Virus record (IMG/VR): IMGVR_UViG_3300049222_000815 | Coordinates: 1 to 61,231 of that record | Length of the DNA: 61,231 bases | Direction: 5' to 3' (one strand) | Source of the DNA: a virus | Lineage: Duplodnaviria > Caudoviricetes | Shown: positions 25,345 through 61,231 of the stretch, piece by piece | Layout: each line of letters begins with the position of its first letter | Numbering within the stretch: position 1 is the stretch's first letter | Position numbers and translations under genes: made by a program | The notes under the pieces: generated by a model | Databases searched by the model: none | Told to the model about the DNA's origin: nothing | Seen by the model: only the letters and a program-made list of their open reading frames with translations

Positions 25345-25761
25345 TCACAAAAGAATATCCATTTTTTTAAAAAAGGATTTTGATAGTTTAGTTTTATCTT
25401 TTTCAAAAATTTCAATCAACTTAATTTCATTCAATTCACAAAAATCATTTTTTTGATGATCTCTTTTTAATTGCATTAAATAATTACTTTTATAATTACC
25501 ATGAAAAAAGGGAACATATCTAGTATGCTGATCACCTTGAACTTCAATAGCTATTTTTTCATTAGCGTTATATAAATCAAAAGTCATTCTTGTTCCTGCA
25601 ATAGGAAACTCTTCAAACACGACATCTCTATGCCAGTAATCTTTAAAGAAGTCTTTGACTAGTTTTTGAAACTTACTGCGACTATCTCCATCCCAGTCGA
25701 TAATATATTTGTGAGCACCAATAATTTTTCTGGTTGAGCCGTTTAAAGTCTTAAACTTCAA
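25345..25761 (-). CDS. Vsr/DUF559-like endonuclease
   Basis: 'FDLY...IAIEVQGDQH...DHQKNDFC...IKLIEI'. Confidence 0.75.
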   Translation of the reverse strand: MKFKTLNGSTRKIIGAHKYIIDWDGDSRSKFQKLVKDFFKDYWHRDVVFEEFPIAGTRMTFDLYNANEKIAIEVQGDQHTRYVPFFHGNYKSNYLMQLKRDHQKNDFCELNEIKLIEIFEKDKTKLSKSFFKKMDILL

Positions 25762-27443
25762 CCTTCTATTCTTTCTTCTGGTTTATAATGTTTGAATCTA
25801 TCGTGAGTGACGGTAGATGCAAGTAGAACCGCAGGTTTTATTTCACCCTTTTTAGTCTCTTGAAAAATGTGAGACATCCAAGTTTGTTCGTAAGGGTGAG
25901 CCCATTTTGTGTTTATAAACATTTTTTTATTACCTTCTTTACTGGTAATGTGAGGCCAATTAGCATAATATATATCTCCACTAATATATGATAAGCCGTC
26001 GAGAACTTCAATGTGTTTAAATTCTGTCCTAGGGCAATTAGGATCTAAACCTGTAGATGGTAGTTGATCATAATCAGGCCATGTGTCTGTTCTATATTGC
26101 TGAGGAACATTGTACCAACTGACCTGAATATTGTTATCCATATAAACTTCTGTATATGAAAGCTTTAGAAAATCAAACTTTTCTTTAAGCATTATTTGAT
26201 GAATTTTTTTATAAAGGTTTGGAATATATTTATTAAATCCATTTCTACATACACCTTCATCAGGATCAGATATTGTCATGTCATCCTCAAAAAATAAATA
26301 AAAATCAGAATCACTCTCGTCAAAATGCTCTGCAGCAAATTGTCTGCCCCCGCAAATCCCTAAATTTTGATCCATAGAAATGTGCTCAAATCCATATTTA
26401 GATGCAATATTTCTATTCCCCTCTCTAGCCTGCTCATTAGTAGAGTTATCTATAATAATTTTTTGTGTTGGGTGAGTCAGGAACCCTTCATGTTTTTGCA
26501 AAGATTTAATTGTTGCCTCTAGCTGTTCTGGGTAATTAAAAGTAAGAAAATACAAGTTGGTTTTAACATGTGATATATCGTTAATTAAAGGAGTAAATTT
26601 TTTACGCTTAGAAGTAAAACTTTCTAATTTCGCTGATCTATTTTTAATCGCTTCAATAAATTTTACAATTAATCCATTGCTATCTAAGGCATATCGTTTA
26701 TAGTATTCTGGGAATAATTTAGCCATGATTGAAAAAACACTCTCTTCAGTACCAGCCAAGCCTTCATTTATGCTTTGCTCTAACAGGTGATAATACTCAG
26801 CATTAGCTTGACTTAAGAAGTCTTTGTGTCCGCCAAATAAACCACCCCTGCACACATAATCTACTTTTTGTTGCGCATATTTATTAATTGCGTTAAATTC
26901 AAAACCATGAATTTCTTTATCCGCTTCATAGGGATAAGATAAAAATAGAAATGGATCCATATTATCAACGATCCTATTTAAAACTTCCTCATCATAAAAG
27001 TAGTTTTCATAAACAGTTTGAGTGATTCCTGCATCTAGCCATAAAAAATAATCTGTGTCAAACGGGTTCCATATCTTGGAGTCATGTAAGAAAAACATCT
27101 TAGACATAACAATAGGGTTATAGTATTCATTTTTACATTGTGGGCTTTCTGGAAGCCAACCTGCTTGATTTTGCCATGATGGACTATTTCTGATTGATTG
27201 CCACTTATTCCAGAATGGAGAAAACATTCTATTTTTAATGTCCTCCAACTCATAAATGCGAACAAAAGTATTTTCTTTTGATCTACGCTCCCAAACGAAA
27301 GACTCCAGAGATTTAGGGATCCACAGCACCATATTGCATGGAATTTTAAGAAATTTATCAAAGTGTTCTTCGTACCTAGACCAATCGCGCCCAGCGCGAT
27401 TAATGTTCCAGAGACCGCTGACTATAGTTAAATTTTTATTCAT
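25758..27443 (-). CDS. HtrL/YibB-family domain fused to a GT-A glycosyltransferase domain
   Basis: N-half 'TIVSGLWNINR...SKMFFL...NPFDTDYFLWLDAG'; C-half 'IIDNS...NLGICGGR...FFEDD'. Confidence 0.72.
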   Translation of the reverse strand: MNKNLTIVSGLWNINRAGRDWSRYEEHFDKFLKIPCNMVLWIPKSLESFVWERRSKENTFVRIYELEDIKNRMFSPFWNKWQSIRNSPSWQNQAGWLPESPQCKNEYYNPIVMSKMFFLHDSKIWNPFDTDYFLWLDAGITQTVYENYFYDEEVLNRIVDNMDPFLFLSYPYEADKEIHGFEFNAINKYAQQKVDYVCRGGLFGGHKDFLSQANAEYYHLLEQSINEGLAGTEESVFSIMAKLFPEYYKRYALDSNGLIVKFIEAIKNRSAKLESFTSKRKKFTPLINDISHVKTNLYFLTFNYPEQLEATIKSLQKHEGFLTHPTQKIIIDNSTNEQAREGNRNIASKYGFEHISMDQNLGICGGRQFAAEHFDESDSDFYLFFEDDMTISDPDEGVCRNGFNKYIPNLYKKIHQIMLKEKFDFLKLSYTEVYMDNNIQVSWYNVPQQYRTDTWPDYDQLPSTGLDPNCPRTEFKHIEVLDGLSYISGDIYYANWPHITSKEGNKKMFINTKWAHPYEQTWMSHIFQETKKGEIKPAVLLASTVTHDRFKHYKPEERIEG

Positions 27444-27955
27444 TTTTTTGAAAAGATTGCTAAGCTGTCTACTATATTAATTTTTTTATATAAACTTTCT
27501 ACGATATTATGATACTTAGGTCTATGAGTATAGTCATGAATCATTAATAAACCATCAATATCTAAATATCCAAACACTTCTACTGCACAGTAAGCTCTAG
27601 CTCTACCGTCAATTAAAATTTTACTGTATTTACTACAAGGAAGTTCATGAACTTTTTTGAAATAAGGTTGCCATTTTAATTTATGGTCTTCACTGGTATA
27701 ATCACAATGAATATTATTATCTAAAAAGAAACATTCGGCATGAAAGATTTTAGTGTTGCTTTGGACTTGAGATGAAACAGTGTCATGCCAAGCCTTCACA
27801 TGCTCAATGCTATAATAATTTTTAACATATTTAGAAAAGTATAATGTGCTTGATCCTGAACCGTACTCTAATACTGTATCGTCTTTATTTAGAATGGAAG
27901 ATATAAAACCGACCTCTTGGGTAGTCATATCCATTGGTTTATTGGGAAGCCTCAT
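27440..27955 (-). CDS. class I SAM-dependent methyltransferase
   Basis: 'VLEYGSGSST', 'SIEH', 'LIDGRAR', 'IHDY'. Confidence 0.8.
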   Translation of the reverse strand: MRLPNKPMDMTTQEVGFISSILNKDDTVLEYGSGSSTLYFSKYVKNYYSIEHVKAWHDTVSSQVQSNTKIFHAECFFLDNNIHCDYTSEDHKLKWQPYFKKVHELPCSKYSKILIDGRARAYCAVEVFGYLDIDGLLMIHDYTHRPKYHNIVESLYKKINIVDSLAIFSKK

Positions 27956-28539
27956 ATTTTTTCCACCAAAACCCTACCACCAATAGAAATAACTTTAATT
28001 GATTGAGAGTATTCAGACAAAAACATATCGATACCTCTCTTAGTTGTATTTGGGTCATCTGCTGTACCCCAGTTATAGTCGTCAAATAATATTTTGCCAC
28101 CAGAGCGACACAAATTTAAACAACCAACCCCATCAAGGTAAACTGCTTCACACCTGTGGTCTCCATCAATAAAACAGAAGTCTATAGTATTAGATAAATG
28201 ACCCAAGGCTATAAAAGCATCAGAACTAGTTTTACGCACTAATTCTATTTTCCCTGAATCCATATGAGCTTTAGTATTATAAATAAATTTATCATATTGA
28301 CCTGAAAAATATTTCCAACGACCATCATTATCAATAGCATTTTGTTCATTTAAATTTTCTGATAAATAACAATCCAATAAAGGATCAATGCATATAAGCT
28401 TTCCATCGCTAGGCAAATTATCAGCGATTGCATTTGATGTTTGACCTTCAAAGCAACCTATTTCTATGCAATTTTTAACACCTTCTTTACTTGCTAATTG
28501 CAAAATTTGAGAATCGGGACCGAGTACTGTATATTTCAT
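27952..28539 (-). CDS. class I SAM-dependent methyltransferase (Methyltransf_24)
   Basis: 'IEIGCFEG', 'FIDGDH', 'GGKILFDDY'. Confidence 0.85.
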   Translation of the reverse strand: MKYTVLGPDSQILQLASKEGVKNCIEIGCFEGQTSNAIADNLPSDGKLICIDPLLDCYLSENLNEQNAIDNDGRWKYFSGQYDKFIYNTKAHMDSGKIELVRKTSSDAFIALGHLSNTIDFCFIDGDHRCEAVYLDGVGCLNLCRSGGKILFDDYNWGTADDPNTTKRGIDMFLSEYSQSIKVISIGGRVLVEKI

Positions 28540-29459
28540 ATTATATTGGATTTTAAGAGTAAATTAAATGTATTTTTAATCATTAAATCCATTGTAAAAT
28601 TGGATTTATAAAAATTGTAACCATTTAGAGAAATTTTATTTAGGTAATTATAATCTTTTCTGACTGATTGATATTTCTCAATTATGTGTTGAGATAACAA
28701 TTCAATGTTTTGTGGAATTGGAGTTAACGCATTGTAGTTAGGCTCCCAATCTACAGGTATATATGTGTCATCTGGTATATCAATTAATAATTTAGATGTA
28801 AACCTAGGTCTAAGGAAAGGCATGCCTGTTAACCAATATTCAATATCTCGATTGCACATATCTCTGATGCCAGACATAGAAAAAGCTAATCTAGAAGAAG
28901 TTAGTTCTTGTTGGTAATTTTTAGACTTGGTGCTTTCTATATCAATGCCTTGAATTTGTGATTTAGATAAATAATCTAAAAGATTGCGGATTCCAGGTAT
29001 CATTAAACCTCTGAAATAAATATTGTCATTTTTAGGATTATAGCAATTTTCTTTATATAGAGAATTACTCTGCCAAGGTCTAAAATACCAAGGTTTAATT
29101 TTAGGTATAATTTCGGGCCAGTCTCGCTTTATTATTGTTTCGTCATAGTGACCAGAATAAATAGCTGCAATTTTATCAATTGGAAGATTTTGAAAACCGC
29201 CCTTAAGTTGCTTGAGATCAAAAAAAGTTGTAAACAATATACATTTTTCTGTGCTTGGGTTGGCTAAAAGTAGGTTATTTAAATTGAAGTTTACTTCGTG
29301 GCCAAAAATATTTCTAACACCATAACCAGAAGCATTTTTATGACTGAATTCTACATATTGTAGTTTTATTTTTTTTGTTTCTAGAAATTCAAAAAATAAT
29401 TGATTGAAATGCCAGAACCATTCCGACTTACTTGTAGAAATGTCCCCAGCAAATAACAT
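28536..29459 (-). CDS. putative GT-B glycosyltransferase
   Basis: 'IYFRG...R...YQQELTSSRLAFSMSG..DMCNRDIE...G.PF'; glycan gene context. Confidence 0.55.
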   Translation of the reverse strand: MLFAGDISTSKSEWFWHFNQLFFEFLETKKIKLQYVEFSHKNASGYGVRNIFGHEVNFNLNNLLLANPSTEKCILFTTFFDLKQLKGGFQNLPIDKIAAIYSGHYDETIIKRDWPEIIPKIKPWYFRPWQSNSLYKENCYNPKNDNIYFRGLMIPGIRNLLDYLSKSQIQGIDIESTKSKNYQQELTSSRLAFSMSGIRDMCNRDIEYWLTGMPFLRPRFTSKLLIDIPDDTYIPVDWEPNYNALTPIPQNIELLSQHIIEKYQSVRKDYNYLNKISLNGYNFYKSNFTMDLMIKNTFNLLLKSNII

Positions 29460-30100
29460 TAAGCTAATTTACGAGAACTTAACCAAGCAACAGAACTGAA
29501 TTCATTATCCATAAAAAGCTCTAAGTTATATGTAGAGAAAGATTGTTCTACATCTGAAAATTTAATTTCATGCCAATTCCAAATTTTATCTTTAATATGA
29601 GAGTTGAAGTAATCTAAGTCTTTAGCATAATCGTGGGCCATGATGTGATCACCAGGTTTTAAGAATTCTGACAACACAGGAAACTCTAAACGCTTGCAGC
29701 CACCATCACACAACACAAGTGTTTTACCTGAAGATTGTATGAATTTTACAGGATCTGAATTTCTGTCAAATATCTGCCAAGGATGTATTTTAGTATTAAA
29801 AACATTATCATTAAAAAATTTTACTTTTTCCCCCTTATCTATATAAGATTGAATTGCTGGCGGAGCAGATTTGTGGTTAGTGTCAAATGTCCATACTTCG
29901 CAATTGTTTTGTCCTGCATTATTCAATGCATCAATAACCATCAAAGTGGTTCCACCAAATGCTGATCCAATTTCAATAACCCTACTAAATTGAACTTGAT
30001 CAAAAAGAGATCTAAAGACGTTAGCTGCTTGAGGGACTTGCATTGTGGTAACTTGATGTCCGTGTTTTGAGTGGTATGTAAAATGGCCTTGCACGCTCAT
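29459..30100 (-). CDS. SAM-dependent methyltransferase (CmcI/Methyltransf_24-like)
   Basis: 'VIEIGSAFGG', 'LCDGG', 'LKPGDHIMAHDY'; likely start ATG 30100. Confidence 0.75.
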   Translation of the reverse strand: MSVQGHFTYHSKHGHQVTTMQVPQAANVFRSLFDQVQFSRVIEIGSAFGGTTLMVIDALNNAGQNNCEVWTFDTNHKSAPPAIQSYIDKGEKVKFFNDNVFNTKIHPWQIFDRNSDPVKFIQSSGKTLVLCDGGCKRLEFPVLSEFLKPGDHIMAHDYAKDLDYFNSHIKDKIWNWHEIKFSDVEQSFSTYNLELFMDNEFSSVAWLSSRKLA

Positions 30101-30105
30101 GGTTT

Positions 30106-31374
30106 TTATCTTTCTACTTGCCTTTCTACTCTTTCTGCCCAACCACGCTTTTTACTATTAGCCCAATAAACTACGCGGCTTGGTTTTTTATCTGTCATAA
30201 ACATTTCTTCGTAATGTATTGGTTTTGAATTTTTCATAAATTGATTTAATTGCTCTCCCTCTATTGATTTAGAAAATATACCTTCTCCATTTTCATCATC
30301 AAATGCAACCAAAATAGATTGGTAATCGTCTTTAGGCATTTCATGACGCTCTAAATTTACTAAATGATAAAAGGAAAACATAAAACTATCTTCCCATTCT
30401 TTTTCGTTCTTGTATGGATAAGGGTTTGGTGGAAAATAATTATCTTTAGTATATTTTTGAAAAGATTTTTTTTTGAAATGTATACCTGCATACTTCTCAT
30501 AATCACGCAAGGTTCTTTTGTTACCTAATCCATATTCACCCAAATCGATTCCATTATCTTCAACTCCAATTAATTGCCTAATCCTAGCTCTTGCGGAATC
30601 ATTTCCTTTCCACCACATATCGTCTCCACGTTTGCTTTGATCGTCCCATACTAACTTGCCAGCCCTCTCTTCTCTCATGGTTGCATGCCAAATGATTACT
30701 TTATGAGGGTGAAACAAATCATATCCATGAGTAAAACTACGCACAGTTAAATTTAATTCTTCTCCAGCAAAAAATATATTTTTATCATGTTTTACATCGC
30801 GTGCCCATTGATTGCTGCCAAAAGCAAAATGACCACTTAAAAACCTAGCGGGATAAGGTTTGGTTAATTTTTTCCAATCTCTAACTCCAGTTGGTCGAAT
30901 AAAAATAGTGTTATGGGGGTAAAAGCATGCAGCTTCAGAAATCCATGGCTCTTGAACTCTGTCTTCTGGGTCGTTAAAAGGGTTGTAATATGGTAAATAT
31001 CCTCCAATTACTGGATTATAGCCATCACATTGTAATTGTTCATGCCAATTAATTAATGTTGAATCCCAATTTTTTGCAAATCTATGATGAGAGTCGAGCT
31101 GGCAGACAAAATCTTCATCAGTTAATAGTTCATCATTAATGATTGCTCTTGCGGTAGCTAAACCTTTAGCTTCTGTATGTGGCATATCATGAATTTTGAA
31201 TCTAGAGTCATCTCTATAGTCATCAAGATTATCAAATCCATCATCTTCGCAATATTGCCTACATATTCCAAAACGGATTCTATCAGGATGCTCAGCATTA
31301 TCAAGAGCACTTTTAATTGTGGGGATTAATTCAGGCTCTCTATATGCAGGTAAGTGAACTAGTATAGTTTTCAT
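30106..31374 (-). CDS. GT60 (Gnt1-like) polypeptide GlcNAc-transferase, paralog 2
   Basis: 'HLPAYREPEL', 'QLDSHHRF', 'FLSGHF', 'FAGEE', 'THGYDLFHP'. Confidence 0.82.
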   Translation of the reverse strand: MKTILVHLPAYREPELIPTIKSALDNAEHPDRIRFGICRQYCEDDGFDNLDDYRDDSRFKIHDMPHTEAKGLATARAIINDELLTDEDFVCQLDSHHRFAKNWDSTLINWHEQLQCDGYNPVIGGYLPYYNPFNDPEDRVQEPWISEAACFYPHNTIFIRPTGVRDWKKLTKPYPARFLSGHFAFGSNQWARDVKHDKNIFFAGEELNLTVRSFTHGYDLFHPHKVIIWHATMREERAGKLVWDDQSKRGDDMWWKGNDSARARIRQLIGVEDNGIDLGEYGLGNKRTLRDYEKYAGIHFKKKSFQKYTKDNYFPPNPYPYKNEKEWEDSFMFSFYHLVNLERHEMPKDDYQSILVAFDDENGEGIFSKSIEGEQLNQFMKNSKPIHYEEMFMTDKKPSRVVYWANSKKRGWAERVERQVER

Positions 31375-32630
31375 GGAGAAGGAACTTCACCCTCTATAAT
31401 AGGCATCCAACCTTTAGATTTTGAGTGTGGCCAAACGAGCCAGGATTTAGGTATTTCAGAAGTCTGAAATTTTCTCCAGAATCTTACGAATTCGTCATTG
31501 GGATCAGAGTTTAGCAAATTAGATACTTCATTTTCATTTGCATCTAGGCGAATCATTTCTTCGCCCGAAGAATTTTTAAACGCCATAACCCAGACATCGT
31601 AATCTTTTTCTGTAAATGTTGGCTTGTGAATATCTATGCAATATTTGAACTCAGACACAAAACCTTTTTCGTATTCAGCTTTAGATTTAAAAGGTGTAGG
31701 TGGTTGCTTCCTGTCAAAAGCATGTTGGTGAACATTGCGATCTTTAAACCTAATCCCAGCATATTTTTCGTAATCTTTTAAAGATCTTATTTTGCCTAAA
31801 CCATATTTTTTAAAATTAGATCTCCTTAATCCATCCATACCTAAAAGTTTTCGATATCGTTGAAAACTTTTTTTATTTAAGTCATTCCACTTTGCGACAT
31901 CATCCCAATGCCTAGACTTGCCTTTGCGAGTGTAGTGATGCCATACCCAAGGTCGATGCAAGTGATAAAGATCATATCCCCATGTAAACGCCCTGACTGC
32001 GAGAGAGCTTTCTTCTCCATGGAAATATAAATTAGGGTCATATGGAACTTCTTCACAGAAAGATCCTAATGTAAAAATAAAATGACCACTTAAAAATCTT
32101 GCTTTTTCGGGACCAAACCGAGACCAGTTTTGTATACTTTCTGGAAAAATAAAAATAGGACCTTCTGGCATAAACCTATCAAGATAAGTCCTCCAGACAT
32201 CATTTAATCGATTTTCATTTTTTTCATCTGGATCATAAGATGGCAAATATGAAGATAATAGAGGTTTGGAACTACCTGATTTAATTAAATCTTTTAATGT
32301 TTTTTTTAATTTTGTGTCCCAACCTTTAACAAATCTATGATGAGAGTCTAACTGAAAATAATATTCTTCTTTATCGTAAAAAGATTGTATCTTACTTCGC
32401 GCTGAACAAACTCCTAAACTTTTTTTATAGGGAGTCTCTATAATGTTAAAGGTTTTTCTTTTTTTATATTTTGAAAGATCATCAAAACCATCTTCTTTTG
32501 AGTACTCTCTTGATATTCCAAATACTAAATTTCTTGGATTGTCTGCATTTTTAATGCAATTTTCAATAGTTGGAATGAGTTCTGGATCTCTGTAGCTGGC
32601 AATTGAAATAAATATTTTATTTTTCTTCAT
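31371..32630 (-). CDS. GT60 (Gnt1-like) polypeptide GlcNAc-transferase, paralog 1
   Basis: 'IFISIASYRDPEL', 'QLDSHHRF', 'PYDPNLYFHGEE', 'RSLKDYEKYAGI'. Confidence 0.85.
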   Translation of the reverse strand: MKKNKIFISIASYRDPELIPTIENCIKNADNPRNLVFGISREYSKEDGFDDLSKYKKRKTFNIIETPYKKSLGVCSARSKIQSFYDKEEYYFQLDSHHRFVKGWDTKLKKTLKDLIKSGSSKPLLSSYLPSYDPDEKNENRLNDVWRTYLDRFMPEGPIFIFPESIQNWSRFGPEKARFLSGHFIFTLGSFCEEVPYDPNLYFHGEESSLAVRAFTWGYDLYHLHRPWVWHHYTRKGKSRHWDDVAKWNDLNKKSFQRYRKLLGMDGLRRSNFKKYGLGKIRSLKDYEKYAGIRFKDRNVHQHAFDRKQPPTPFKSKAEYEKGFVSEFKYCIDIHKPTFTEKDYDVWVMAFKNSSGEEMIRLDANENEVSNLLNSDPNDEFVRFWRKFQTSEIPKSWLVWPHSKSKGWMPIIEGEVPSP

Positions 32631-33714
32631 CTTCGAAAATCTTATTAATAATATTATAAAAATATTCTTTTAAATTTCCATTAGATTCTATAAGTGATAA
32701 TAATTTATGATCTCCTTGTATTTTGTCTGGACAATCTAGCCCCTCTGATTTTATTTCTTTAGCAAAATCTTCATCAAAAGATATCCAAGCCCCTTTCTTT
32801 TCTATGTAACCCCAAAGATAAAGCATATCGATAATTTCTTTTTCTATCCAAATTGAATTGCCATTAACTCTACCATATTTTATTGGGTAGCGTACTTGAG
32901 CTCCAGTTTTTTCATTAACACTTTTTCTGAATCTAATTTTGCAGTAATGACCTATGGGATTACCTTTATCTTCAATTCTAGAGGCTGAAGGATTTTCCCA
33001 CATAATGTCATTTGTGTAACGCTCTTCAAATTCTAATATAAAATTAGCATAATGTTTAATTGCATTTCCACCTGCCTGTTTAACTTTGGGTCCACCTCTG
33101 GCAGCATAGGGGTTTGATGCAACTTCTACTCTAACTTGAGATGTTAAAAGCATCATGTGACCCATTTTTGTAATTGGTAAAACCATCTTTTTTAGAAATA
33201 CCGAAGTAACTAGAGCTCCTCCTGCCACCTGTTCACTTTCACTAAACGGTTTATCAACATCATTAATTCGACATAATGCATCAACACTATCAATAATGAA
33301 CATGTATTTCTTCTTGTCTTCATTATTGAAAACCAAATCCCTAATGAATTCAAAAACCTTCTCGAAAATATTGCAATCTAAAACAAAAAATCTTTCAGGA
33401 TCAAGATTAACTCCTGTGCGTTTAAGCATCTCTTTACTAAGACGCCCTTCCGACTTAACTACAACAACCATTCCGTTGTCGCCAAAATGCTCTTGAAAGT
33501 TCTTTGCAACGGTTAATGCACAGCTAGTTTTTCCTCCTTCATTAACTCCTGTAAATCGATGAGCTCCAGAAGGTAAGCCACCGCCTAAAGCTAAATCTAA
33601 ATTAAGACTACCGCTTGATATTTTATAATCTTCTTCCTCAAAATTATTAAAATGATACTTTTGATTATCTTTGTTTAAAAGGAATTTATTTATTTGATCT
33701 AATGTTTTACTCAT
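32617..33714 (-). CDS. recA: RecA/UvsX-family recombinase
   Basis: 'SSGSLNLDLALGGGLP', 'GVNEGGKTS', 'IIDSV', 'SQVR', 'GGNAIKHYA'. Confidence 0.9.
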   Translation of the reverse strand: MSKTLDQINKFLLNKDNQKYHFNNFEEEDYKISSGSLNLDLALGGGLPSGAHRFTGVNEGGKTSCALTVAKNFQEHFGDNGMVVVVKSEGRLSKEMLKRTGVNLDPERFFVLDCNIFEKVFEFIRDLVFNNEDKKKYMFIIDSVDALCRINDVDKPFSESEQVAGGALVTSVFLKKMVLPITKMGHMMLLTSQVRVEVASNPYAARGGPKVKQAGGNAIKHYANFILEFEERYTNDIMWENPSASRIEDKGNPIGHYCKIRFRKSVNEKTGAQVRYPIKYGRVNGNSIWIEKEIIDMLYLWGYIEKKGAWISFDEDFAKEIKSEGLDCPDKIQGDHKLLSLIESNGNLKEYFYNIINKIFEDEEK

Positions 33715-35469: not shown

Positions 35470-35471
35470 GT

Positions 35472-36335: not shown

Positions 36336-36337
36336 AA

Positions 36338-39341: not shown

Positions 39342-39381
39342 TAAGATCAATTATCTTAGCACACAAAATAAATTATGTCAA
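39342..39381 (-). promoter_or_regulatory. sigma70 promoter of nrdB, -10 within an inverted repeat
   Basis: TTGACA-N17-TAAGAT; inverted repeat TAAGAT-N5-ATCTTA. Confidence 0.75.
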
Positions 39382-51726: not shown

Positions 51727-52263
51727 TCACTTGGGTTCTCCTATTGGTCTTAATTTATAAATTCCCTTGTGAGTATGTTTCTTTTCTTCTTCTAAATTAA
51801 CAAAAGAAGGATACTCACTCCATTTGTGTAAAACTTCTAAATTGAATTTATTTGAAATTTCATTCTGGATAGTATCAGGGGATTGGATTAAATTTTCATA
51901 TTTGATAGCATAGTCAATATATGAAGAATAATTTTTTGCTTGATCCATGCATGCATCGTATCTAGATTCTTTAACCAATCCATTATCCGATTTAAGAACA
52001 TCTTTTTTATTTCTAGTTACATTTATGATATTAACATTTTTAATTAATTTTAATTGAGAATCAATTTGAGATTGAGGTAATTTATTTGAAAAAATTGAAT
52101 CAAATGATCTTTTTCCTACATCATATCCTGAATTAAGAAAATAAGATAGCCCAATTTCGTCTAGATTATATACTTTAAGATTAAAAGCATTAAATAAACG
52201 TCTTACTAAAGTAGTTCCTGTTTTAGCGCATCCAGTAATAAAAATTGGTTTAAATTGTTTCAT
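51727..52263 (-). CDS. sulfotransferase-like P-loop protein
   Basis: 5'-PSB-like 'IFITGCAKTGTTL', 'VTRNKKDVLKS', 'IKYENLIQSP'. Confidence 0.65.
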   Translation of the reverse strand: MKQFKPIFITGCAKTGTTLVRRLFNAFNLKVYNLDEIGLSYFLNSGYDVGKRSFDSIFSNKLPQSQIDSQLKLIKNVNIINVTRNKKDVLKSDNGLVKESRYDACMDQAKNYSSYIDYAIKYENLIQSPDTIQNEISNKFNLEVLHKWSEYPSFVNLEEEKKHTHKGIYKLRPIGEPK

Positions 52264-52867
52264 AAAATTTATTTTGATTTTCTTGTTTTTTTATACTTTT
52301 AATATGCAGTAACGCATACTCTGGTGTAGATGGTAGTCGGGAGCCTGAGTTAATGCCTTTGATTCTTTCGTGAACTTTGTTTTCCCATTTGATATTGAAA
52401 TTATTTTTAAATATTCTATATTGATAATCAGGCCAGTTAATCCAACCTTTTTCATTGCAAGTCCAGTTCCAGCGTTCTATGTGATCTTTAGTAAGGCCTT
52501 CAACAATATTAATTCTAGGAACGAGAAATAAATCTATATCTAAATTGGATTCAATCAATTTATGCAAATTTGATACAGTTTCTTCTGCAGGAATTTCATC
52601 AGCGTCTATTTGGAAAATGTAATCTCCTTTACAGATTTTTTTTAAATTGTTTTTAAACGAAGCAAAATCATTATTTAAATTAAATTTATTAATTTTTAAT
52701 TTGTTTTTCTTGATTACATTTAAAACTTTTTCGGTTACGGAATTAGAATCAACTTGTACTATAATTTCATCTTCCGATCTCTTGTATTTATTTACAAACT
52801 TAATTAGTTTATCAAGCTCTAAATGCTCGTTGCAAGCTGTTATGGCATATGAAATAGTAAAGTTCAT
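52250..52867 (-). CDS. glycosyltransferase family 2
   Basis: 'ITACNE', 'DFASFKN', 'FQIDADE', 'WPDYQYRIF', 'VHE'. Confidence 0.85.
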   Translation of the reverse strand: MNFTISYAITACNEHLELDKLIKFVNKYKRSEDEIIVQVDSNSVTEKVLNVIKKNKLKINKFNLNNDFASFKNNLKKICKGDYIFQIDADEIPAEETVSNLHKLIESNLDIDLFLVPRINIVEGLTKDHIERWNWTCNEKGWINWPDYQYRIFKNNFNIKWENKVHERIKGINSGSRLPSTPEYALLHIKSIKKQENQNKFYETI

Positions 52868-53625
52868 TCTTCTGAAAAAGGTATTTCTTTCTGTTTATTT
52901 AAATCTTTGATTTCTTGTTTGTGTTTTTCTGGATGAAGAGCAATGCAATCTTCTTTATACTTTGTAACTAAAATTCGAAAAATAGAATAACCATAAGATT
53001 TTAGTTTTTTGATAACTTGCTGATCATTTACACAATCTTCATGCCAAGCATAATTTTCAAAGAAAATAATTGGGAGGTTATTTTTAATAGTTTTTGTTGC
53101 ACCTTTTAAAAAATTAATTTCAAAACCTTCTATATCTAATTTAATAAAATCTACAGTATCAAAGGTAAAAGAATCAAGTTTTTTTGTTTCTATTGACCCT
53201 TCTCCTTTTCCCATTGGAACTATTTTTCTCCCACCCCAGTTAATTAAATCACTATTTTTTTCAGCACATTCAGAAAGTGCATTGAATTGCATCATCTCAT
53301 TTGTTTTACCGAGAGCTTCTCTAAACTGCAATACATTTGAGCTTAAGCTATTAAATAGTATGTTAGATGAAAGAATGTTGTATATATCTGGCTGGGGCTC
53401 AAACGCATACACTAACCCACTCTTACAGAGCCTAGCTATATTGACGGTATGCCATCCTATATTAGCTCCAACATCTATGCAGATAAAATCTTCTTTAATG
53501 AATTTACTATAAAGGTTTACTAGCCAAGGCTCCCATGTACCTGCCAGTTTTAGGTTATTGGATATGGAATCTTTATCAATTAATACGAATTGACCACCTT
53601 GGGTTTGATGCATGTATAAGTTCAT
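52864..53625 (-). CDS. FkbM-family methyltransferase
   Basis: 'IDVGANIG', 'AFEP', 'IKLDIEGFE'. Confidence 0.92.
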   Translation of the reverse strand: MNLYMHQTQGGQFVLIDKDSISNNLKLAGTWEPWLVNLYSKFIKEDFICIDVGANIGWHTVNIARLCKSGLVYAFEPQPDIYNILSSNILFNSLSSNVLQFREALGKTNEMMQFNALSECAEKNSDLINWGGRKIVPMGKGEGSIETKKLDSFTFDTVDFIKLDIEGFEINFLKGATKTIKNNLPIIFFENYAWHEDCVNDQQVIKKLKSYGYSIFRILVTKYKEDCIALHPEKHKQEIKDLNKQKEIPFSEE

Positions 53626-53632
53626 TTAGGTA

Positions 53633-54484
53633 TTATATGTGACGACTTTGTGTTTTCAATAAAAACCGATTCCATTTACTTTCAAGCATTTTGTTTTGAT
53701 ATTCTATAACTTTTTTTTCGTGCTGCCAAGAGGATTGTTCTACTTGCACTTGAGGCTTGATTGAGGGTATGAAATATATAGGAGCCAGCTCTCGTAATTT
53801 GTCGCAAAAATACCAATGCTCAAGTTGACCATTTGAGAACCACTCAACCTTGTTAAAATAATCACTTTTAATAAAAACAAAACCACCAAAAGATCTAAAT
53901 ACATCAATGGGTTTATTATTTTTAAATAAATCTCTATCTTGAGATCTGTAGAAAGGATTGGAGCTCCATGTCATACACTGATTTTTATCATGATCAACCA
54001 GGCTCCAGCTATCGTAATAAGAGGTATCATCGCTAGAACCCATTTTGCATGGAACGTTTTGCCTGACATTTGGGGTTAGCATTGAAAAATTTAAATTTAA
54101 ATATTTAAAATATTCATTAATTATATTTGGATCAAATTTTACATCACTATCAAAAACAACCGTATAATCTGAATCAACGGGCTTACCTAAATCTGCCATT
54201 TTATTTCTAATTCTTGCCATTTTTATTACTCTAGAAGGTTCCATTGTAGAGCCATAGGATTTCTCATTAGCATTTTCTGATTTACATATTCCCTTTTTAT
54301 CTTTAATCCATTCTTTTAAAATGGAAGAGGTTTGATCTTTAGAATCATTTTCATAAAAAAAATATTCAAAATCGGCATTTGTAATTTTAGCCATTTGATC
54401 TAATCTATTTAGACAATCATGGATATAATCCTCTGAATCTCTAAATAAGCTAAAAACTGAAATTCGGCATTTTTTTGTTGACAT
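53633..54484 (-). CDS. GT-A glycosyltransferase (Anp1/CAP59-like)
   Basis: 'LFRDSE', 'YENDSKD.T', 'MARIRN', 'FDSDV', 'YYDSW', 'SFGG', 'EH'. Confidence 0.65.
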   Translation of the reverse strand: MSTKKCRISVFSLFRDSEDYIHDCLNRLDQMAKITNADFEYFFYENDSKDQTSSILKEWIKDKKGICKSENANEKSYGSTMEPSRVIKMARIRNKMADLGKPVDSDYTVVFDSDVKFDPNIINEYFKYLNLNFSMLTPNVRQNVPCKMGSSDDTSYYDSWSLVDHDKNQCMTWSSNPFYRSQDRDLFKNNKPIDVFRSFGGFVFIKSDYFNKVEWFSNGQLEHWYFCDKLRELAPIYFIPSIKPQVQVEQSSWQHEKKVIEYQNKMLESKWNRFLLKTQSRHI

Positions 54485-54664: not shown

Positions 54665-54666
54665 TC

Positions 54667-54942
54667 ATGAAAATTAAAAACTATATTATTTCTTCCGCCA
54701 ACTGGGATATTGAGGTTGATGGAGATGATTGTAAATCAGCTGCACAATCTGGAGTGATTATGGCTATGAAAAATTATGGTAAAAAATTATTGATGTCTAC
54801 TGTCGTAATGGTCAGATTAAAAAATGATAAGCCTAATGATTTTTCTAATGCTGAATTTTTTGCTTCTCATGAAATATTTAATGATATTGGATATCATTCG
54901 CTAGCAGAAGAATTTAAACAACTCGGTAAATTAATTAAATGA
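54667..54942 (+). CDS. hypothetical protein
   Basis: the track start 54631 is the -35 TTG; ATG 54667 fits the promoter. Confidence 0.65.
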   Translation: MKIKNYIISSANWDIEVDGDDCKSAAQSGVIMAMKNYGKKLLMSTVVMVRLKNDKPNDFSNAEFFASHEIFNDIGYHSLAEEFKQLGKLIK

Positions 54943-55475
54943 TTTTAAATATATTAAATAATTCCGAGTTAATCAATCCAGTAAATGACGGTGATGCAGG
55001 TTACGATGTTGTGTGTAAAAGCGATCCAAAGGTAGTAGGTTCTATATATCAAGGGCTTTACTATACTGCAATATCTCACATAGAATATGATACAGAATTA
55101 AATATTGAACCATCTTCTCTTGATGGTAAATATGACTTTTTTATGCTTCTATACCCTAGATCTAGCATCATAAAAACAAATCTCACGCTAGCTAATTCAG
55201 TTGGGGTTATAGATTCTGGTTACAGAGGTAATATTAAGGTTTGCTTCAAATACTGCATTCAACCAGAAGACATGAAGATAGTCGAAGGTAAAAATATACT
55301 TGGAAAAAATGCCAAAGGGATAGTGTCTTCAATAAATCCTCAAAGGATTTATCAAAAAGGAGATAAGATAGCTCAACTTATTCCTTGCAAACATAATAAA
55401 CTTTCTATAAACTATGTTGATAAATTATCACAATCATCACGAGATACAAAAGGATTCGGGAGTACAGGAAAATGA
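54939..55475 (+). CDS. dut: dUTPase (trimeric)
   Basis: 'DAGYD', 'PRSS', 'GVIDSGYRG', 'IAQL', 'R..KGFGSTG'. Confidence 0.95.
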   Translation: MILNILNNSELINPVNDGDAGYDVVCKSDPKVVGSIYQGLYYTAISHIEYDTELNIEPSSLDGKYDFFMLLYPRSSIIKTNLTLANSVGVIDSGYRGNIKVCFKYCIQPEDMKIVEGKNILGKNAKGIVSSINPQRIYQKGDKIAQLIPCKHNKLSINYVDKLSQSSRDTKGFGSTGK

Positions 55476-56071: not shown

Positions 56072-56507
56072 ATATATGGCAATAGGAAACTTGACGCAGG
56101 ATCCAAAATGCAGAGATGTAGGAGACAATAAAGTTTGCCTCTTCGGTGTTGCAGTTAATGAATTTTATTATAAAGATAATCAAAAGCAGAAAACTACATT
56201 ATTTATTGATGTAGAGGCTTGGAATAGACAAGCAGAAAATTGCACAAAGTTCCTTACTAAAGGAAAAAAAGTTGCAATTGAGGGAAAACTTAAAACTAAT
56301 TCTTGGGAAAAGAATGGTCAAAAGTTTAGTAAAATATATGTCCAAGCTGACAAAGTTCACTTCTTGGGTGGAGATGATTCTAGCAACTCTCAATCTTCTA
56401 CCACAAGTGCATCTCAATCCAAGCCAGATAAAAAATTAATTAAAGCTCAAGAACAGGTAGTTGAATCTGCTGAAGAGATGGAAGATATTGATGACATACC
56501 TTTTTGA
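56064..56507 (+). CDS. ssb: single-stranded DNA-binding protein
   Basis: 'GNLTQDP', 'AW.RQAE', 'KGKKVAIEGKL', C-terminal DDIPF. Confidence 0.95.
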   Translation: MNKYMAIGNLTQDPKCRDVGDNKVCLFGVAVNEFYYKDNQKQKTTLFIDVEAWNRQAENCTKFLTKGKKVAIEGKLKTNSWEKNGQKFSKIYVQADKVHFLGGDDSSNSQSSTTSASQSKPDKKLIKAQEQVVESAEEMEDIDDIPF

Positions 56508-56509
56508 TC

Positions 56510-57601
56510 ATGGATAAAATTATTTACAAAGGAGCAATTAATTCTTTAAGTTTCGGTAATGTCTCTTACAATATATTAAGGGAGCTTTACAGAAAAGAAA
56601 TTCAGACAGCGTTCTTTCCTATATCAGATAAACTAGACTTTGAGTCTTTTGATAAAATTGATAAAGACTTTAGAGACTGGATTGTATCTTCAGCTGAAAA
56701 TAGATTTCACTTAATTAATAAAGATTACGATACATTATCTCAATGGCACTTGAATGGTAGTGAAAATAGGGTATCCAAGAAACAAACTTTATTTACATTT
56801 TATGAGTCTGACCAGCCAACTCCTGTAGAAAAATCTATAGTAGATATGCAAGACAACTGCATCTTTGGTAGTTCTCACGCGGCTGATAAATTTAAATATA
56901 TTGGTTGCGATAATGTCGATTATGTTCCTATAGGATTTGATGAAGATTTTAACGAAATAGATGAAGACTTCCTACCCAATAAAATCCATTTTGGATTGAT
57001 GGGTAAGTTTGAAAACAGAAAAAATACAGCACAAATAATTAAAAATTGGGCTAAAACATATGGCAATAATTACGATTATCAATTATCTTGTTGTATAACA
57101 AATCCATTTTTCAAGAATGATCAACTTAATCAACTCATTGCTTCAGCATTAGAAGGTAAGTCATATGGCAATATTAACTTTTTACCAAGACTTAAAACGA
57201 ATTCCGAAGTGAATGAATTTTTAAATGCAATAGATATAGATTTATCTGGACTCAGTGGAGCTGAAGGTTGGAACATTCCTGCGTTTAATTCCACAGCTTT
57301 AGGTAAATGGAGTATCGTTATGAATCATACATCTCATAAAGACTGGGCTGATTCAAAAAATTCAATTCTTATAGAGCCTGATAGCCAAGTTGAAATATAC
57401 GATCAAGCCTTTTTCCATAAAGGTACTGCCTTTAATCAAGGCAATATGAATAAGATTTCAGATGAAACAATGATAAATGCATTTAAAAAATCTGAAAAAA
57501 AATATGGAAAAATCAATAAAGAAGGATTAAAATTAAAAAGTAAATTCACATACGAAAACACACTAAACAAAATATTGGAGATTATATCAAATGAAAAATA
57601 A
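56510..57601 (+). CDS. glycosyltransferase family 4 (GT-B)
   Basis: 'VPIGFD', 'GKFENRKN', 'SGAEGWNIPAF'. Confidence 0.8.
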   Translation: MDKIIYKGAINSLSFGNVSYNILRELYRKEIQTAFFPISDKLDFESFDKIDKDFRDWIVSSAENRFHLINKDYDTLSQWHLNGSENRVSKKQTLFTFYESDQPTPVEKSIVDMQDNCIFGSSHAADKFKYIGCDNVDYVPIGFDEDFNEIDEDFLPNKIHFGLMGKFENRKNTAQIIKNWAKTYGNNYDYQLSCCITNPFFKNDQLNQLIASALEGKSYGNINFLPRLKTNSEVNEFLNAIDIDLSGLSGAEGWNIPAFNSTALGKWSIVMNHTSHKDWADSKNSILIEPDSQVEIYDQAFFHKGTAFNQGNMNKISDETMINAFKKSEKKYGKINKEGLKLKSKFTYENTLNKILEIISNEK

Positions 57602-58249: not shown

Positions 58250-58278
58250 ATTTATAGTCATCTATAATAATATCCATT

Positions 58279-59087: not shown

Positions 59088-59641
59088 TGAGCATACAAAT
59101 ATATAAACCAAATAAGAATAATACAGGTTTCGCCTTTAGTTTTTATATTGGCGAACCAAGAGGTAACCATACTCCAAATTTATTTTTAAACGCCATAGCT
59201 CAACACTCCTGGGACAGCTCAAAAAGATTGGGATCTTTTTCTGGAAATAAAAATGATCCAGATAAAAATATTTCAATAAAATTTAATGAGTTTGAATGCG
59301 GTGCGATAATTAATTGCATTAACAATAGATATGAATGGAATACTTATCATGCCTTTGAGCAAAACAAAACTCAAATAAAAATATCCCCTTGGGATAAAAA
59401 AGTTAAAGTAACTAAAATTAATCAACAAACAAAACAGCCATTTGATCAAGAAATTACCGTTCCAGCGTTTGGTTTATCTGTCACAAGAAATGGTAATCAG
59501 AATTTTAAAATTCCACTAGAACCTGGAGAAGCTGAATGTATAAAAATATTATGCGAAACATTAATCCGCAAGGTTTGTGAGACTAAAATATATAAGCCGC
59601 AAAAAGAAAAAGAAGACGTATCATCAGATTACGATTTCTAA
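59087..59641 (+). CDS. putative Whirly/PC4-fold ssDNA-binding protein
   Basis: 'SIKFNEFECGAII', 'TYH', 'FGLSV...KIPLEPGE' parallel Whirly motifs; acidic-aromatic tail DYDF. Confidence 0.4.
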   Translation: MSIQIYKPNKNNTGFAFSFYIGEPRGNHTPNLFLNAIAQHSWDSSKRLGSFSGNKNDPDKNISIKFNEFECGAIINCINNRYEWNTYHAFEQNKTQIKISPWDKKVKVTKINQQTKQPFDQEITVPAFGLSVTRNGNQNFKIPLEPGEAECIKILCETLIRKVCETKIYKPQKEKEDVSSDYDF

Positions 59642-61231
59642 TGAAAAATAAAAAGAAAAAAAAGAAAATTTTAATACACAGCAATCACTCTAGAGCTAAA
59701 ACTGGCTTTGGGAAGCATATGCGTAATCTAATTACATATTTATACAAAACCAAAAAATATGAAATTATTGAATTTGCAAATGGTAGACCTTGGAATGATC
59801 CAGACTTAAATGTTATGCCATGGAAATCTATAGGTTCTCTTCCTATTGAGCCTCAGTTAATTCAAGAAATTAATGCAGATCAACAGAAAGCTAGAAAAGC
59901 TGGTTATGGACATTATAAGATTGACGATGTAATCAAACAAGAAAAGCCAGACATATACTTAGGCATTGAAGACATATGGGGATTGGATGGCATGTGGTCA
60001 AAAAAATGGTGGAAGAAAATCAACTCTATTATATGGACTCCTGTTGATAGTTTGCCTCTTTTAGAAAAACATGAAGATGCAGCCAAAAATACTCAAAATT
60101 TAATTGTTCAAGCTTCATTTGCTAAAAACGCTTTAAACGAAAAAGGTTTCAATAATGTTCATTTAATGCCTGTTCCGTTAGATCACTCTAACTTTTTTAA
60201 ACTAGATGAGCAATCTAAACTTAAATTAAGATCAAAAAATAACATATCAGATAATGATTTTATTATTGGTTTTGTTTTTAGGAATCAATTAAGAAAAAGT
60301 GTCCCTAACCTGCTTGAAGGTTTTAAAATTTTCTTGCAAGAACATCCAGAATCTCAATGCAAGCTCTTGCTTCACACGCATTGGGGTGAGGGCTGGGATA
60401 TTCCTAGACTTTTAAAAGAGAAAAATATTGATCCTAATTTAATTTTAACTACTTATTTTTGCGATAAATGCAAACAGTATGAAGTAAAACCTTTTACAGG
60501 TCAAGATATTGATTGTAGATTATGTGGATCTGAAAAATCTCAACAAACAGCACAAATTTCAAGAGGGGTTTCTGAAACTCAATTAAATGAAATTTATAAT
60601 TTAATGGATGTTTATTGTCATCCATTCACATCTGGAGGTCAAGAAATTCCAATTCAAGAAGCTAAACTCTGTGAGTTGATAACTCTCGTTACAGATTATT
60701 CTTGCGGATCAGATTATGCGTCTAATGAAAGTGGGGGGCTACCCTTATCTTGGACTGAGTATAGAGAGCCTGGAACACAATTTATAAAAGCTTCAACAGA
60801 TTCAAAAGATATAGCTAACCAATTAACAAAAGTCTATAAAATGACTGAATCTAAAAAAAGCAAATTAGGTAAAAAAGCTAGAGACTTTGTAATTGATTTT
60901 TGCTCTATTGATTCAGTTTGTGCTAAGTTTGACGAATTAATTTCATCAATGAATCCCTCAACATGGGATTTTGATTTTTCTTATGTAGAGAAAAACCCTC
61001 AATATGTACCTAAAAATATTAAGGATGACAGAGATTGGATTATTGATTTATATAATAATATATTATTAATTGATGCAGAAAATGAAGATCAAAATGGTAT
61101 TGATCATTGGATGCATAGATTAAAAACAGATCTAAATAGACAGCAAGTTTATGATTATTTTATCAAAGTTGCCAAAGAAGATAATGCAAAAAATAAAAAA
61201 ATGCCATTCACAGACTTACTTAGTGAAGATG
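59641..61231 (+). CDS. glycosyltransferase family 4 with Zn-ribbon insertion, truncated by the window end (not in ORF track)
   Basis: MKNKKKKKKILIHSNHSRAKTGFG...; 'RNQLRKS', 'LLLHT', 'CDKC-x14-CRLC', 'LNEIYNLMDVYCHPFTSGGQEIPIQEA'. Confidence 0.85.
   Translation, partial: MKNKKKKKKILIHSNHSRAKTGFGKHMRNLITYLYKTKKYEIIEFANGRPWNDPDLNVMPWKSIGSLPIEPQLIQEINADQQKARKAGYGHYKIDDVIKQEKPDIYLGIEDIWGLDGMWSKKWWKKINSIIWTPVDSLPLLEKHEDAAKNTQNLIVQASFAKNALNEKGFNNVHLMPVPLDHSNFFKLDEQSKLKLRSKNNISDNDFIIGFVFRNQLRKSVPNLLEGFKIFLQEHPESQCKLLLHTHWGEGWDIPRLLKEKNIDPNLILTTYFCDKCKQYEVKPFTGQDIDCRLCGSEKSQQTAQISRGVSETQLNEIYNLMDVYCHPFTSGGQEIPIQEAKLCELITLVTDYSCGSDYASNESGGLPLSWTEYREPGTQFIKASTDSKDIANQLTKVYKMTESKKSKLGKKARDFVIDFCSIDSVCAKFDELISSMNPSTWDFDFSYVEKNPQYVPKNIKDDRDWIIDLYNNILLIDAENEDQNGIDHWMHRLKTDLNRQQVYDYFIKVAKEDNAKNKKMPFTDLLSED

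Follow-up and report, generated by a model that had tools for sequence, protein, structure and literature searches.

Candidate cytoplasmic O-glycosylation of Thr/Pro-repeat proteins by an uncultured tailed phage

The IMG/VR virus record IMGVR_UViG_3300049222_000815 is a linear DNA of 61,231 bases that was analyzed over its entire length (referred to here as the window), and about one-third of this 61-kb fragment is taken up by sugar-adding and sugar-tailoring enzymes. The cluster encodes two paralogous glycosyltransferases (GTs) of family GT60 and a protein with Thr/Pro (TP) repeats, and the phage glycan enzymes probably coat the phage's own TP-repeat proteins with complex glycans. The mechanism favored here, with a probability of about 0.55 judged from the genes and their neighborhoods, is a cytoplasmic, lipid-carrier-independent O-glycosylation of these proteins, and its mode would be most like mucin-type or serine-rich repeat protein (SRRP)-type cytoplasmic O-glycosylation. 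The GT60 enzyme at positions 31371 to 32630 and the TP-repeat open reading frame (ORF) at positions 37111 to 38235 form a candidate enzyme-acceptor pair that is directly testable.

Two long IMG/VR records, G001 (146,036 bases; CheckV completeness, 100%) and G003 (139,273 bases; CheckV completeness, 98%), share the gene order of the window, and the core genes are mostly 55 to 95% identical among the three. The tail genes of G001 include lambda-like minor tail genes M and L, a K-like minor tail protein, and the central fiber J. Because of the collinearity and these tail genes, the window is read as part of an uncultured tailed phage of about 140 kb, with a lambda-type tail tip as annotated in the relative G001. 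The CheckV completeness of the window is about 43%, and the structural half of the phage is absent from it.

GT60 and its linkage to Thr/Pro-repeat proteins

Both GT60 proteins of the window belong to PF11397, scoring 168.5 and 206.1 bits against a cutoff of 21, and the motifs QLDSHHRF (DxH type), GEE, and WDD are invariant in 10 of 10 aligned homologs. The AlphaFold2 (AF2) model of the enzyme at 31371 to 32630 (pLDDT, 72.6; pTM, 0.58) combines a GT-A fold with the DxH metal/nucleotide-sugar motif, as far as a model of moderate quality can tell. Its best PDB folds according to Foldseek are the polypeptide GalNAc-transferases (pp-GalNAc-Ts) T10, T1 with a mucin glycopeptide, T2, and PGANT9, with E values of about 1e-7 and TM-scores of 0.40 to 0.46 across the GT-A domain; they are followed by further enzymes with this fold, such as chondroitin polymerase, TarS, and collagen galactosyltransferase. 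By this model, the enzyme appears closest to the mucin-type pp-GalNAc-Ts, whose metal motif is presumably also D-S-H, and it is proposed as the initiating polypeptide O-N-acetylhexosamine (O-HexNAc) transferase. A phmmer search of PDB sequences with GT60 gave no match, and the matches among cultured phages are confined to four jumbo Xanthomonas/Stenotrophomonas phages, at 37 to 39% identity.

A pattern search built from the GT60 alignment recovered at least 582 viral stretches with a relative; 80 were kept and, with 17 close loci, yielded 95 loci; in 54 of them, a TP-rich ORF lies no farther than 10 kb from GT60. Positions were counted in 80 loci after the removal of identical GT60 proteins. 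The first ORF upstream of GT60 is TP-rich in 41 of 72 cases, the second in 22 of 63, and the third in 13 of 56, whereas the corresponding downstream counts are 0 of 79, 1 of 78, and 2 of 77, and the share among all flanking ORFs is 100/1143. The directly upstream TP-rich ORFs are all co-directional with GT60 (46/46, duplicates included), with a median gap of 78 nt. Because the loci are related, GT60 was clustered before testing, and TP-rich ORFs were found upstream versus downstream in 12/38 versus 0/43 cases at 90% identity (Fisher p, 3.8e-5) and in 5/18 versus 0/20 cases at 70% identity (p, 0.017). The original prediction had named the co-occurrence of GT60 with Thr/Pro-repeat proteins in related contigs as a check, and these counts show such an association in a subset of clades.

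The second conserved partner of GT60 is the fusion of an HtrL_YibB domain with a GT, a homolog of which is found no more than 10 kb from GT60 in 83 of 95 loci (10 of 11 in the window's own clade and 73 of 84 in other clades). Homologs of recA and of ribonucleotide reductase (RNR) were found in none of the 84 other-clade loci, and the remaining GTs of the window were found in 0 to 12 of them. In a sister group, which has a family-B polymerase in place of the DNA polymerase III alpha subunit (PolIII-alpha), the gene order is TP-repeat ORFs, GT60, further GTs and methyltransferases (GT25, methyltransferase, RXYLT1-like, GT10, or GT7C-like genes), and a 558-amino-acid (aa) HtrL fusion; one of the TP-repeat ORFs bears a Laminin_G_3 lectin domain. 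From these gene orders, GT60 and the HtrL-GT fusion appear to be kept together in two phage lineages whose polymerases differ.

GT60 homologs also occur in 208 stretches of bacterial genome assemblies. The closest bacterial matches are mostly from Bacteroidota assemblies (Saprospiraceae, Cytophagaceae), and several are short contigs that are possibly phage themselves. By a looser S+T+P criterion and crude ORF calls in GC-rich DNA, 14 of 60 bacterial homologs have an S/T/P-rich ORF as their immediate upstream neighbor, versus 29 S/T/P-rich ORFs among 813 flanking ORFs. In loci L305, L313, L314, L316, and L317, from Sphingomonadales and other assemblies, the homolog lies directly 3' of a same-strand Pro/Thr-rich ORF of 1186 to 1452 aa. 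In the Saprospiraceae locus L256, which may be a prophage, the upstream ORF of 673 aa is like the phage-type TP-repeat proteins.

In the window, the TP-repeat ORF sits between the GT60/recA block and the RNR genes. About 100 of its residues form a Thr/Pro repeat of the type VTPTITNTPTVTPT (VTPTITNTPT type), which is encoded by a 30-nt tandem repeat, and its S+T+P content peaks at 0.77 within 30 residues. A hydropathy scan found no hydrophobic N terminus, and profile searches found no family match. Over its first 184 residues, the protein shares 52% identity with a TP-repeat ORF of 533 aa from the structural region of G001, and this N-terminal domain has one homolog among all loci examined; the C-terminal domain has two other relatives in 1.84 billion representatives, and a word search with it gave no relative. 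The three Cys-rich ORFs that adjoin the TP-repeat ORF share 25 to 33% identity with syntenic ORFs in G001 and G003, compared with 84 to 95% for the flanking genes, and the sequence of this block suggests that it is fast evolving. TP-repeat matches are present in five of five large related records. G003 has three such ORFs and G001 has six (533 to 1180 aa), five of them in a block adjoining tail genes M, L, and J and one directly after J.

Gene content, solubility, synteny, positional linkage of GT60 to TP-repeat ORFs, and fold resemblance are direct observations; the donor sugars, acceptor, order of steps, and virion location in the following scheme we infer. The soluble enzyme at 31371 to 32630 and its paralog at 30106 to 31374 would put the first HexNAc on Thr residues of the TP repeats, with the ORF at 37111 to 38235 and several large fiber-like proteins from the unsequenced structural part of the genome as acceptors. 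The conserved HtrL-GT fusion would extend this first sugar, and a strain-variable set of GT-A and GT-B enzymes would add further sugars, including fucose supplied by the phage gmd and fcl genes. The chains would be capped by methyl groups and, in relatives, also by many sulfate groups, and the glycosylated proteins would become part of virions or be attached to them and leave the cell at lysis.

The glycan gene set and its setting

The 14 GT-like ORFs previously described between positions 25758 and 61231 were all recovered in the ORF list (Table 1); 10 pass Pfam curated cutoffs, 1 is supported by PHROG, 1 is weak, and 2 are leads from the ESM-Atlas. Neither lead was matched in profile searches of Pfam, PHROG, and NCBIfam. 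The GT-B-like lead has an Atlas feature score of 0.95 to 0.98 and structural TM-scores of 0.65 to 0.67 to named GT clusters, and the GT-A-like lead is 46% identical to its counterparts in G001 and G003. The GT2 part of the HtrL fusion is below threshold (Pfam E, 2.2e-4), and the GT8-like ORF is related to a GT8 ORF of G003 at a pairwise BLASTP E value of 1e-5. The GT61 ORF has no match among cultured phages, and the ORF at 59641 to 61230 runs past the contig end.

Table 1. Positions of the glycan-related genes and other annotated features in the window
Feature	Position	Strand	Basis or remark
C5-cytosine DNA methylase	4659-6005	-	
tmRNA	12087-12449	-	Rfam RF00023, 135 bits; predicted tag end ALAA
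ClpB/Hsp104-like double AAA+ ATPase	13774-16158	-	Full-length, 794 aa
PolIII-alpha	16182-18767		Left half of window
330-aa conserved ORF in replication module	20360-21352	-	Only ORF of window with multiple transmembrane-like segments
DnaB	23512-25062		Left half of window
HtrL_YibB + GT2-like fusion, 561 aa	25758-27443	-	Pfam 44.5 bits, E 1.9e-11
Possible S-adenosylmethionine (SAM) methyltransferase	27440-27955	-	GSGSS-type motif by eye only; no HMM match
Methyltransf_24 / O-methyltransferase	27952-28539	-	Pfam E 3.2e-13
GT-B-like (Glyco_trans_1_2 / GT90 / RXYLT1_C-like)	28536-29459	-	ESM-Atlas lead
Probable sugar O-methyltransferase (TylF/CmcI-like)	29459-30142	-	Subthreshold Pfam, E 0.003-0.006
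GT60-family (PF11397) paralog 2	30106-31374	-	Pfam E 3.7e-49, phrog_24687 E 2.5e-106
GT60-family (PF11397) glycosyltransferase	31371-32630	-	Pfam E 1.4e-60
Three Cys-rich ORFs (461, 287, 196 aa)	34084-36928	-	No family match (Pfam, PHROG, NCBIfam)
TP-repeat ("mucin-like") protein, candidate glycan acceptor	37111-38235	-	374 aa
GT61-family	39378-40436	-	Pfam E 9.4e-28
Nucleotid_trans + DUF7796, two-domain transferase	40433-42064	-	Pfam E 2.9e-10 and 1.5e-14
GT-A / GT2-like ORF	42269-43213	-	Atlas clusters auto-named GT2-like, 0.99
Rhamnosyltransferase-like (Rhamno_transf), partial domain	43538-44155	-	Pfam E 3.2e-16
fcl, GDP-L-fucose synthase	44300-45238	-	NCBIfam E 1.1e-116, 389.6 bits
gmd, GDP-mannose 4,6-dehydratase	45235-46407	-	Pfam E 3.9e-100
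NUDIX hydrolase	47227-47646	-	Best profile matches generic NUDIX/MutT
GT8-like, weak	50258-51004	+	Pfam GT8/DUF273 E 0.003-0.008, below cutoff
GT2	50991-51725	-	Pfam E 2.2e-25
Sulfotransferase-like, weak	51727-52263	-	Sulfotransfer_3 E 4.9e-7, over 21 residues only
GT2	52250-52867	-	Pfam E 1.6e-10
FkbM-family methyltransferase	52864-53625	-	Pfam E 1.2e-18, TIGR01444 E 5.5e-25
CAP59/Anp1-like (CAP59_mtransfer), mannosyltransferase type	53633-54484	-	Pfam E 4.9e-12
GT-B (GT4-like)	56504-57601	+	phrog_2170 E 7.8e-20; Pfam 23.1 bits, below cutoff
GT-B (GT4-like, Glycos_transf_1) + DUF4214 tail	59641-61230	+	Pfam E 8.8e-8, phrog_2170 E 1.5e-21

Among the sugar-supply genes that had been claimed, gmd is clear and fcl was matched, though at a score under the NCBIfam equivalog cutoff of 500 bits. 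Four SAM methyltransferases had been counted, of which two are clear, one is subthreshold, and one rests on a motif, giving a count of three or four; the G001 ORF at the position matching the subthreshold one (35% identity over 199 aa) passes the RMNT_CmcI cutoff. The sulfotransferase-like gene has a weak match, over a very short alignment. The described interleaving of the glycan genes with recA, both RNR subunits, dUTPase, a sigma-like ORF, and the single-stranded DNA-binding protein (SSB) is seen in the ORF list and Pfam matches, and recA (32617 to 33714) overlaps the start of GT60 by 14 nt. The NUDIX hydrolase gene lies close to gmd and fcl, an arrangement that we take to recall the GDP-mannose mannosyl hydrolase of colanic-acid clusters.

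The glycan gene content of G001 and G003 is larger than that of the window. G001 carries 10 Sulfotransfer_2 (PF03567) ORFs, an adenosine-5'-phosphosulfate (APS) kinase, and an inorganic pyrophosphatase, with the sulfation genes at 9468 to 18046, 54730 to 55380, and 23230 to 24685 (loci L027, L028, and L030). It also encodes Fringe/GT31, a GT92-like GT, two GT61, two DUF2827, a GT25+GT34 fusion, a mannose-6-phosphate-isomerase cupin, and a sugar-tailoring island with UDP-glucose dehydrogenase, DegT aminotransferase, formyltransferase, hexapeptide acyltransferase, and an epimerase/dehydratase. G003 encodes GT-D, GT8, GT10, GT25, GT31, GT90, and GT92 enzymes, three Caps_synth/Gly_transf_sug ORFs, two DUF6492, one DUF5672, and 11 sulfotransferase ORFs (10 PF03567 and 1 PF17784). 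This predicted load of carbohydrate-type sulfotransferases in the two relatives is unusual for a phage. The GT islands differ among the window, G001, and G003, and the replication core is conserved. Among the sulfotransferases of G003 (locus L043) are also an ATE_C domain (arginyl-tRNA-protein transferase C-terminal domain; E, 1.9e-9) at 126116 to 126910 and a TupA-like ATP-grasp ORF at 124016 to 124801.

The GTs had been described as free of membrane anchors, and by a Kyte-Doolittle hydropathy scan 13 of the 14 GT ORFs lack any transmembrane-like segment; the other (40433 to 42064) has a single marginal one. As also described, no Pfam family for Wzx, Wzy, Wzz, or a priming transferase was matched in the window, and none for GtrA was matched. 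The ORFs of G001 and G003 that were scanned likewise gave no match to a priming transferase (PGT), Wzx, Wzy, an ABC permease, or GtrA, and neither an O-antigen/capsule locus (Wzx/Wzy or ABC) nor a GtrABC locus was recognized in any of the three. None of the 141 ORFs of G001 and 172 ORFs of G003 has more than four transmembrane-like segments; the most, three to four, are in the homolog of the 330-aa window ORF at 20360 to 21352. The absence of export machinery from the window is thus not an artefact of its being a fragment. The 330-aa ORF is 60 to 62% identical in G001 and G003 and has three to four hydrophobic segments and a long coiled-coil-like middle.

Weighing the alternatives

The original prediction of a soluble, stepwise protein-glycosylation pathway held with respect to solubility and the lack of export machinery. 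Its protein target is partly and indirectly supported, by the TP-repeat ORF in the cluster, the TP ORFs upstream of GT60, the GT60 fold, and the lack of DNA-glycosylation enzymes, and a single stepwise pathway for all 14 GTs is an assumption of the prediction. Several points weigh against O-glycosylation of the phage's own TP-repeat proteins. The association between GT60 and TP-repeat ORFs is real and is carried by a subset of clades, and the gene immediately upstream of GT60 in the window's own clade is recA rather than a TP-repeat ORF. In a reverse test, which covered 46 of 80 loci with a (PT)5-coding stretch, PF11397 was present in 6 of the 46 searched viral records, which indicates that TP repeats alone do not predict GT60; among records of at least 100 kb, it was present in 4 of 5. 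The quality of the GT60 model is moderate, single-sequence AF2 modeling of the TP-repeat ORF failed at a pLDDT of 41.5, and the window is a fragment of about 43% of the genome. The placement of TP-repeat proteins in the virion comes from gene position and one lectin domain, and the head genes of G001 escaped recognition, with no capsid, portal, or terminase gene identified in it by PHROG or Pfam.

A wider version of the proposal, tentative and more apt to fail than to hold, is that widespread uncultured aquatic phages make "phage mucins," that is, a sulfated mucin-type glycocalyx on fiber-like virion proteins. Its scope would be at least 582 GT60-bearing viral stretches and at least two lineages with different replication modules. 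The glycans might be started on long Thr/Pro repeats in the bacterial cytoplasm by a pp-GalNAc-T-like GT60 and built by a hypervariable set of up to about 20 or more eukaryote-like GTs, with fucose, methyl groups, and multiple sulfates, and the supply of 3'-phosphoadenosine-5'-phosphosulfate would be partly phage encoded, because G001 has an APS kinase. If this version is true, bacteria-infecting viruses would have a glycocalyx comparable to those of animal cells and giant viruses.

The main rival to protein O-glycosylation, unlikely but with a real claim, is host envelope remodeling, in which soluble phage enzymes would act on host lipid-linked intermediates of lipopolysaccharide (LPS), capsule, or S-layer and rely on host flippases and polymerases, and the altered surface would, for example, block superinfection or grazing. 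Support for it, which at the same time counts against a protein target, comes from LPS/capsule-type annotations, including HtrL_YibB, V_cholerae_RfbT/FkbM, GT2, GT4, Rhamno_transf, and gmd/fcl in the window and GT25 and Caps_synth in the relatives. Moreover, because LPS and capsule pathways also employ soluble cytoplasmic GTs that require no membrane anchor, the lack of anchors does not discriminate between a protein and an envelope target, which also weakens the case for the former. Modification of the host surface was hypothesized for the 24 "LPS genes" of cyanophage P-SSM2 (PMC1079782). Against envelope remodeling stands the absence of a priming transferase, flippase, polymerase, ABC permease, and GtrA from the scanned ORFs of the window, G001, and G003. 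It also leaves unexplained the linkage and co-directionality of GT60, TP-repeat ORFs, and the HtrL fusion, as well as the resemblance of GT60 to pp-GalNAc-Ts. A role in lysogenic conversion lacks support, since the ORFs scanned in the window, G001, and G003 include neither an integrase nor any recognized lysogeny gene.

A rather improbable alternative is that only the GT60/HtrL core serves TP-repeat proteins, with most of the variable GTs, methyltransferases, and sulfotransferases directed at other targets, such as proteins of the host, small molecules, or a polysaccharide or decoy that is released. The conservation of GT60 and the HtrL fusion alone with TP-repeat ORFs, the rarity of the other GTs in other-clade loci, and the strong differences among the GT islands of the window, G001, and G003 agree with such a division. 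However, a variable surface glycan on a single acceptor would also show high turnover, and the variable GTs of the sister clade belong to a single co-directional block, flanked in it by GT60 and HtrL.

Glycosylation of modified phage bases as an escape from restriction is very improbable, although a dCMP deaminase, a dNMP kinase, a C5-cytosine methylase, and a deoxyribosyltransferase-like ORF are encoded in the window, and phage GTs that decorate DNA with glycans were reportedly described by Pyle in 2024 (cited in PMC12619734). Against it, ThyA-type hydroxymethylase (PF00303), ThyX (PF02511), and TET/JBP (PF12851) were each found in 0 of 5 records (the window and four relatives, three of which are at least 93% complete). 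A set of at least 14 GTs with sulfotransferases is also far beyond the DNA-glycosylation systems known to us, which to our knowledge are far smaller. Least probable of all is a cellular polysaccharide locus misbinned as viral: bacterial assemblies do contain GT60 homologs, but recA, RNR, dUTPase, and SSB are overlapped or adjoined by the GT genes on a single strand, and records of 139 to 146 kb rated 98 to 100% complete are collinear with the window. The record annotated in its structural region (G001) has lambda-like tail genes. Synteny with near-complete phage records thus speaks against the cellular LPS or exopolysaccharide locus with wzx/wzy that the original prediction had named as the finding that would overturn it.

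Comparison with known systems and other genes of the window

Phage self-glycosylation is already known, and the form proposed here, with GT60, TP repeats, and HtrL, would be a new variation with respect to the literature searched. Mycobacteriophages (Che8, Corndog, and Myrna) are reported to modify their capsid and tail-tube subunits with phage-encoded GTs, of which gp110 of Che8 and gp38 of Corndog are named (Freeman 2023, cited in PMC12363180 and PMC12619734). The system proposed here, judged from genes alone, is similar in that soluble GTs encoded within a phage genome would modify structural proteins of that phage inside the host cell. The mycobacteriophage systems reportedly comprise few GTs and act on the C termini of capsid and tail-tube subunits, whereas the window has 14 GT-like genes in 35 kb, together with a candidate GT60 initiator, long Thr/Pro repeats, GDP-fucose synthesis, and methylation, and the relatives add further GT families and 10 to 11 sulfotransferases each.

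Eukaryotic mucin-type O-glycosylation is initiated by polypeptide GalNAc-transferases of family GT27, and polypeptide alpha-GlcNAc-transferases of family GT60 are found in Dictyostelium and Trypanosoma cruzi. The phage system shares with these the GT-A fold, the DxH-type motif, and, as candidates, acceptors rich in Thr/Pro repeats. The eukaryotic enzymes are Golgi type II membrane proteins, save the cytosolic Gnt1, whereas the phage GT60s have no transmembrane-like segment and would act in the bacterial cytoplasm on a predicted donor and acceptor. SRRP adhesins of Gram-positive bacteria are glycosylated by GtfA/GtfB and then stepwise by cytoplasmic GTs, including a GT-D/DUF1792 enzyme. The proposed phage pathway would likewise be a cytoplasmic, lipid-independent, stepwise O-glycosylation of Ser/Thr-rich repeats with HexNAc first, and a GT-D fold ORF is present in the relative G003. 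The SRRP initiator is a GT-B (GT4) pair, with export by accessory Sec, whereas GT60 would take that place here, and hydropathy scans of the window, G001, and G003 found no SecY-like polytopic membrane protein.

Chlorovirus capsid glycans are N-glycans, whereas the likely acceptor here is an O-linked TP repeat. Chloroviruses and giant viruses encode their own soluble GTs, GDP-mannose dehydratase, and GDP-fucose synthase. Autonomous glycosylation in these viruses is the subject of two reports (PMC4691112, PMC7019647). The window resembles these viruses in its soluble GTs and gmd/fcl and in its eukaryote-like GT60, GT61, and CAP59 genes, as do its relatives in eukaryote-like GT90, GT92, Fringe/GT31, GT10, and GT34. 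Unlike chloroviruses, it belongs to a tailed phage, with lambda-like tail genes in G001, and its PolIII-alpha, DnaB, DnaG, SSB, sigma-like factor, and tmRNA are of bacterial type, which speaks against membership among the giant viruses of eukaryotes. The original prediction had spoken of giant-virus scale in a bacteriophage; the phage origin is supported, and a comparable gene count has a precedent in the 24 putative LPS genes of cyanomyovirus P-SSM2, a large phage glycan gene set known since 2005 (PMC1079782). The target hypothesized there is host LPS, with no acceptor protein proposed, whereas the linkage of GT60, TP repeats, and HtrL here points to a protein.

Searches of open full-text literature, with supplements and non-open papers outside their scope, gave no account of phages with GT60-type enzymes, TP-repeat acceptors, or multiple sulfotransferases and nothing relevant on O-glycosylation with tail fiber. 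Phage self-glycosylation has so far been documented in a few actinophages with a handful of GTs. If the proposed O-glycosylation is true, a mucin-type and possibly sulfated modification would be common in an abundant group of uncultured phages and would be initiated by an enzyme from a family studied mainly in protists. It would also provide a ready-made cytoplasmic toolkit for glycoengineering in bacteria and change expectations of how virions contact hosts, grazers, particles, and mucus.

The GC content of the window is about 31%. Profile searches assigned bacterial-type replication and nucleotide genes to its left half, including, in addition to PolIII-alpha and DnaB, an RNase T-like exonuclease, DnaG, a PD-(D/E)XK nuclease, a ClpB-like ATPase, the C5-cytosine methylase, dCMP deaminase, and dNMP kinase. 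A megablast search with 24 kb of the window gave no match among cultured phages, and its PolIII-alpha is at most 33% identical to that of any cultured phage. In G001, a 2,984-aa ORF of tape-measure size (117986 to 126940, + strand) lies ahead of the genes for minor tail proteins and, should it prove to be the tape measure, would imply a very long tail.

The ClpB-like gene is placed between a 429-aa ORF without a family match and PolIII-alpha. The C5-cytosine methylase gene overlaps the start of a 242-aa ORF without a family match (3938 to 6005 for the pair, - strand), and since TET/JBP was not matched, the pair may be a methylase with a partner of unassigned family. A tRNA-Ser(GCT) gene adjoins the tmRNA gene (11993 to 12449 for the two, - strand).

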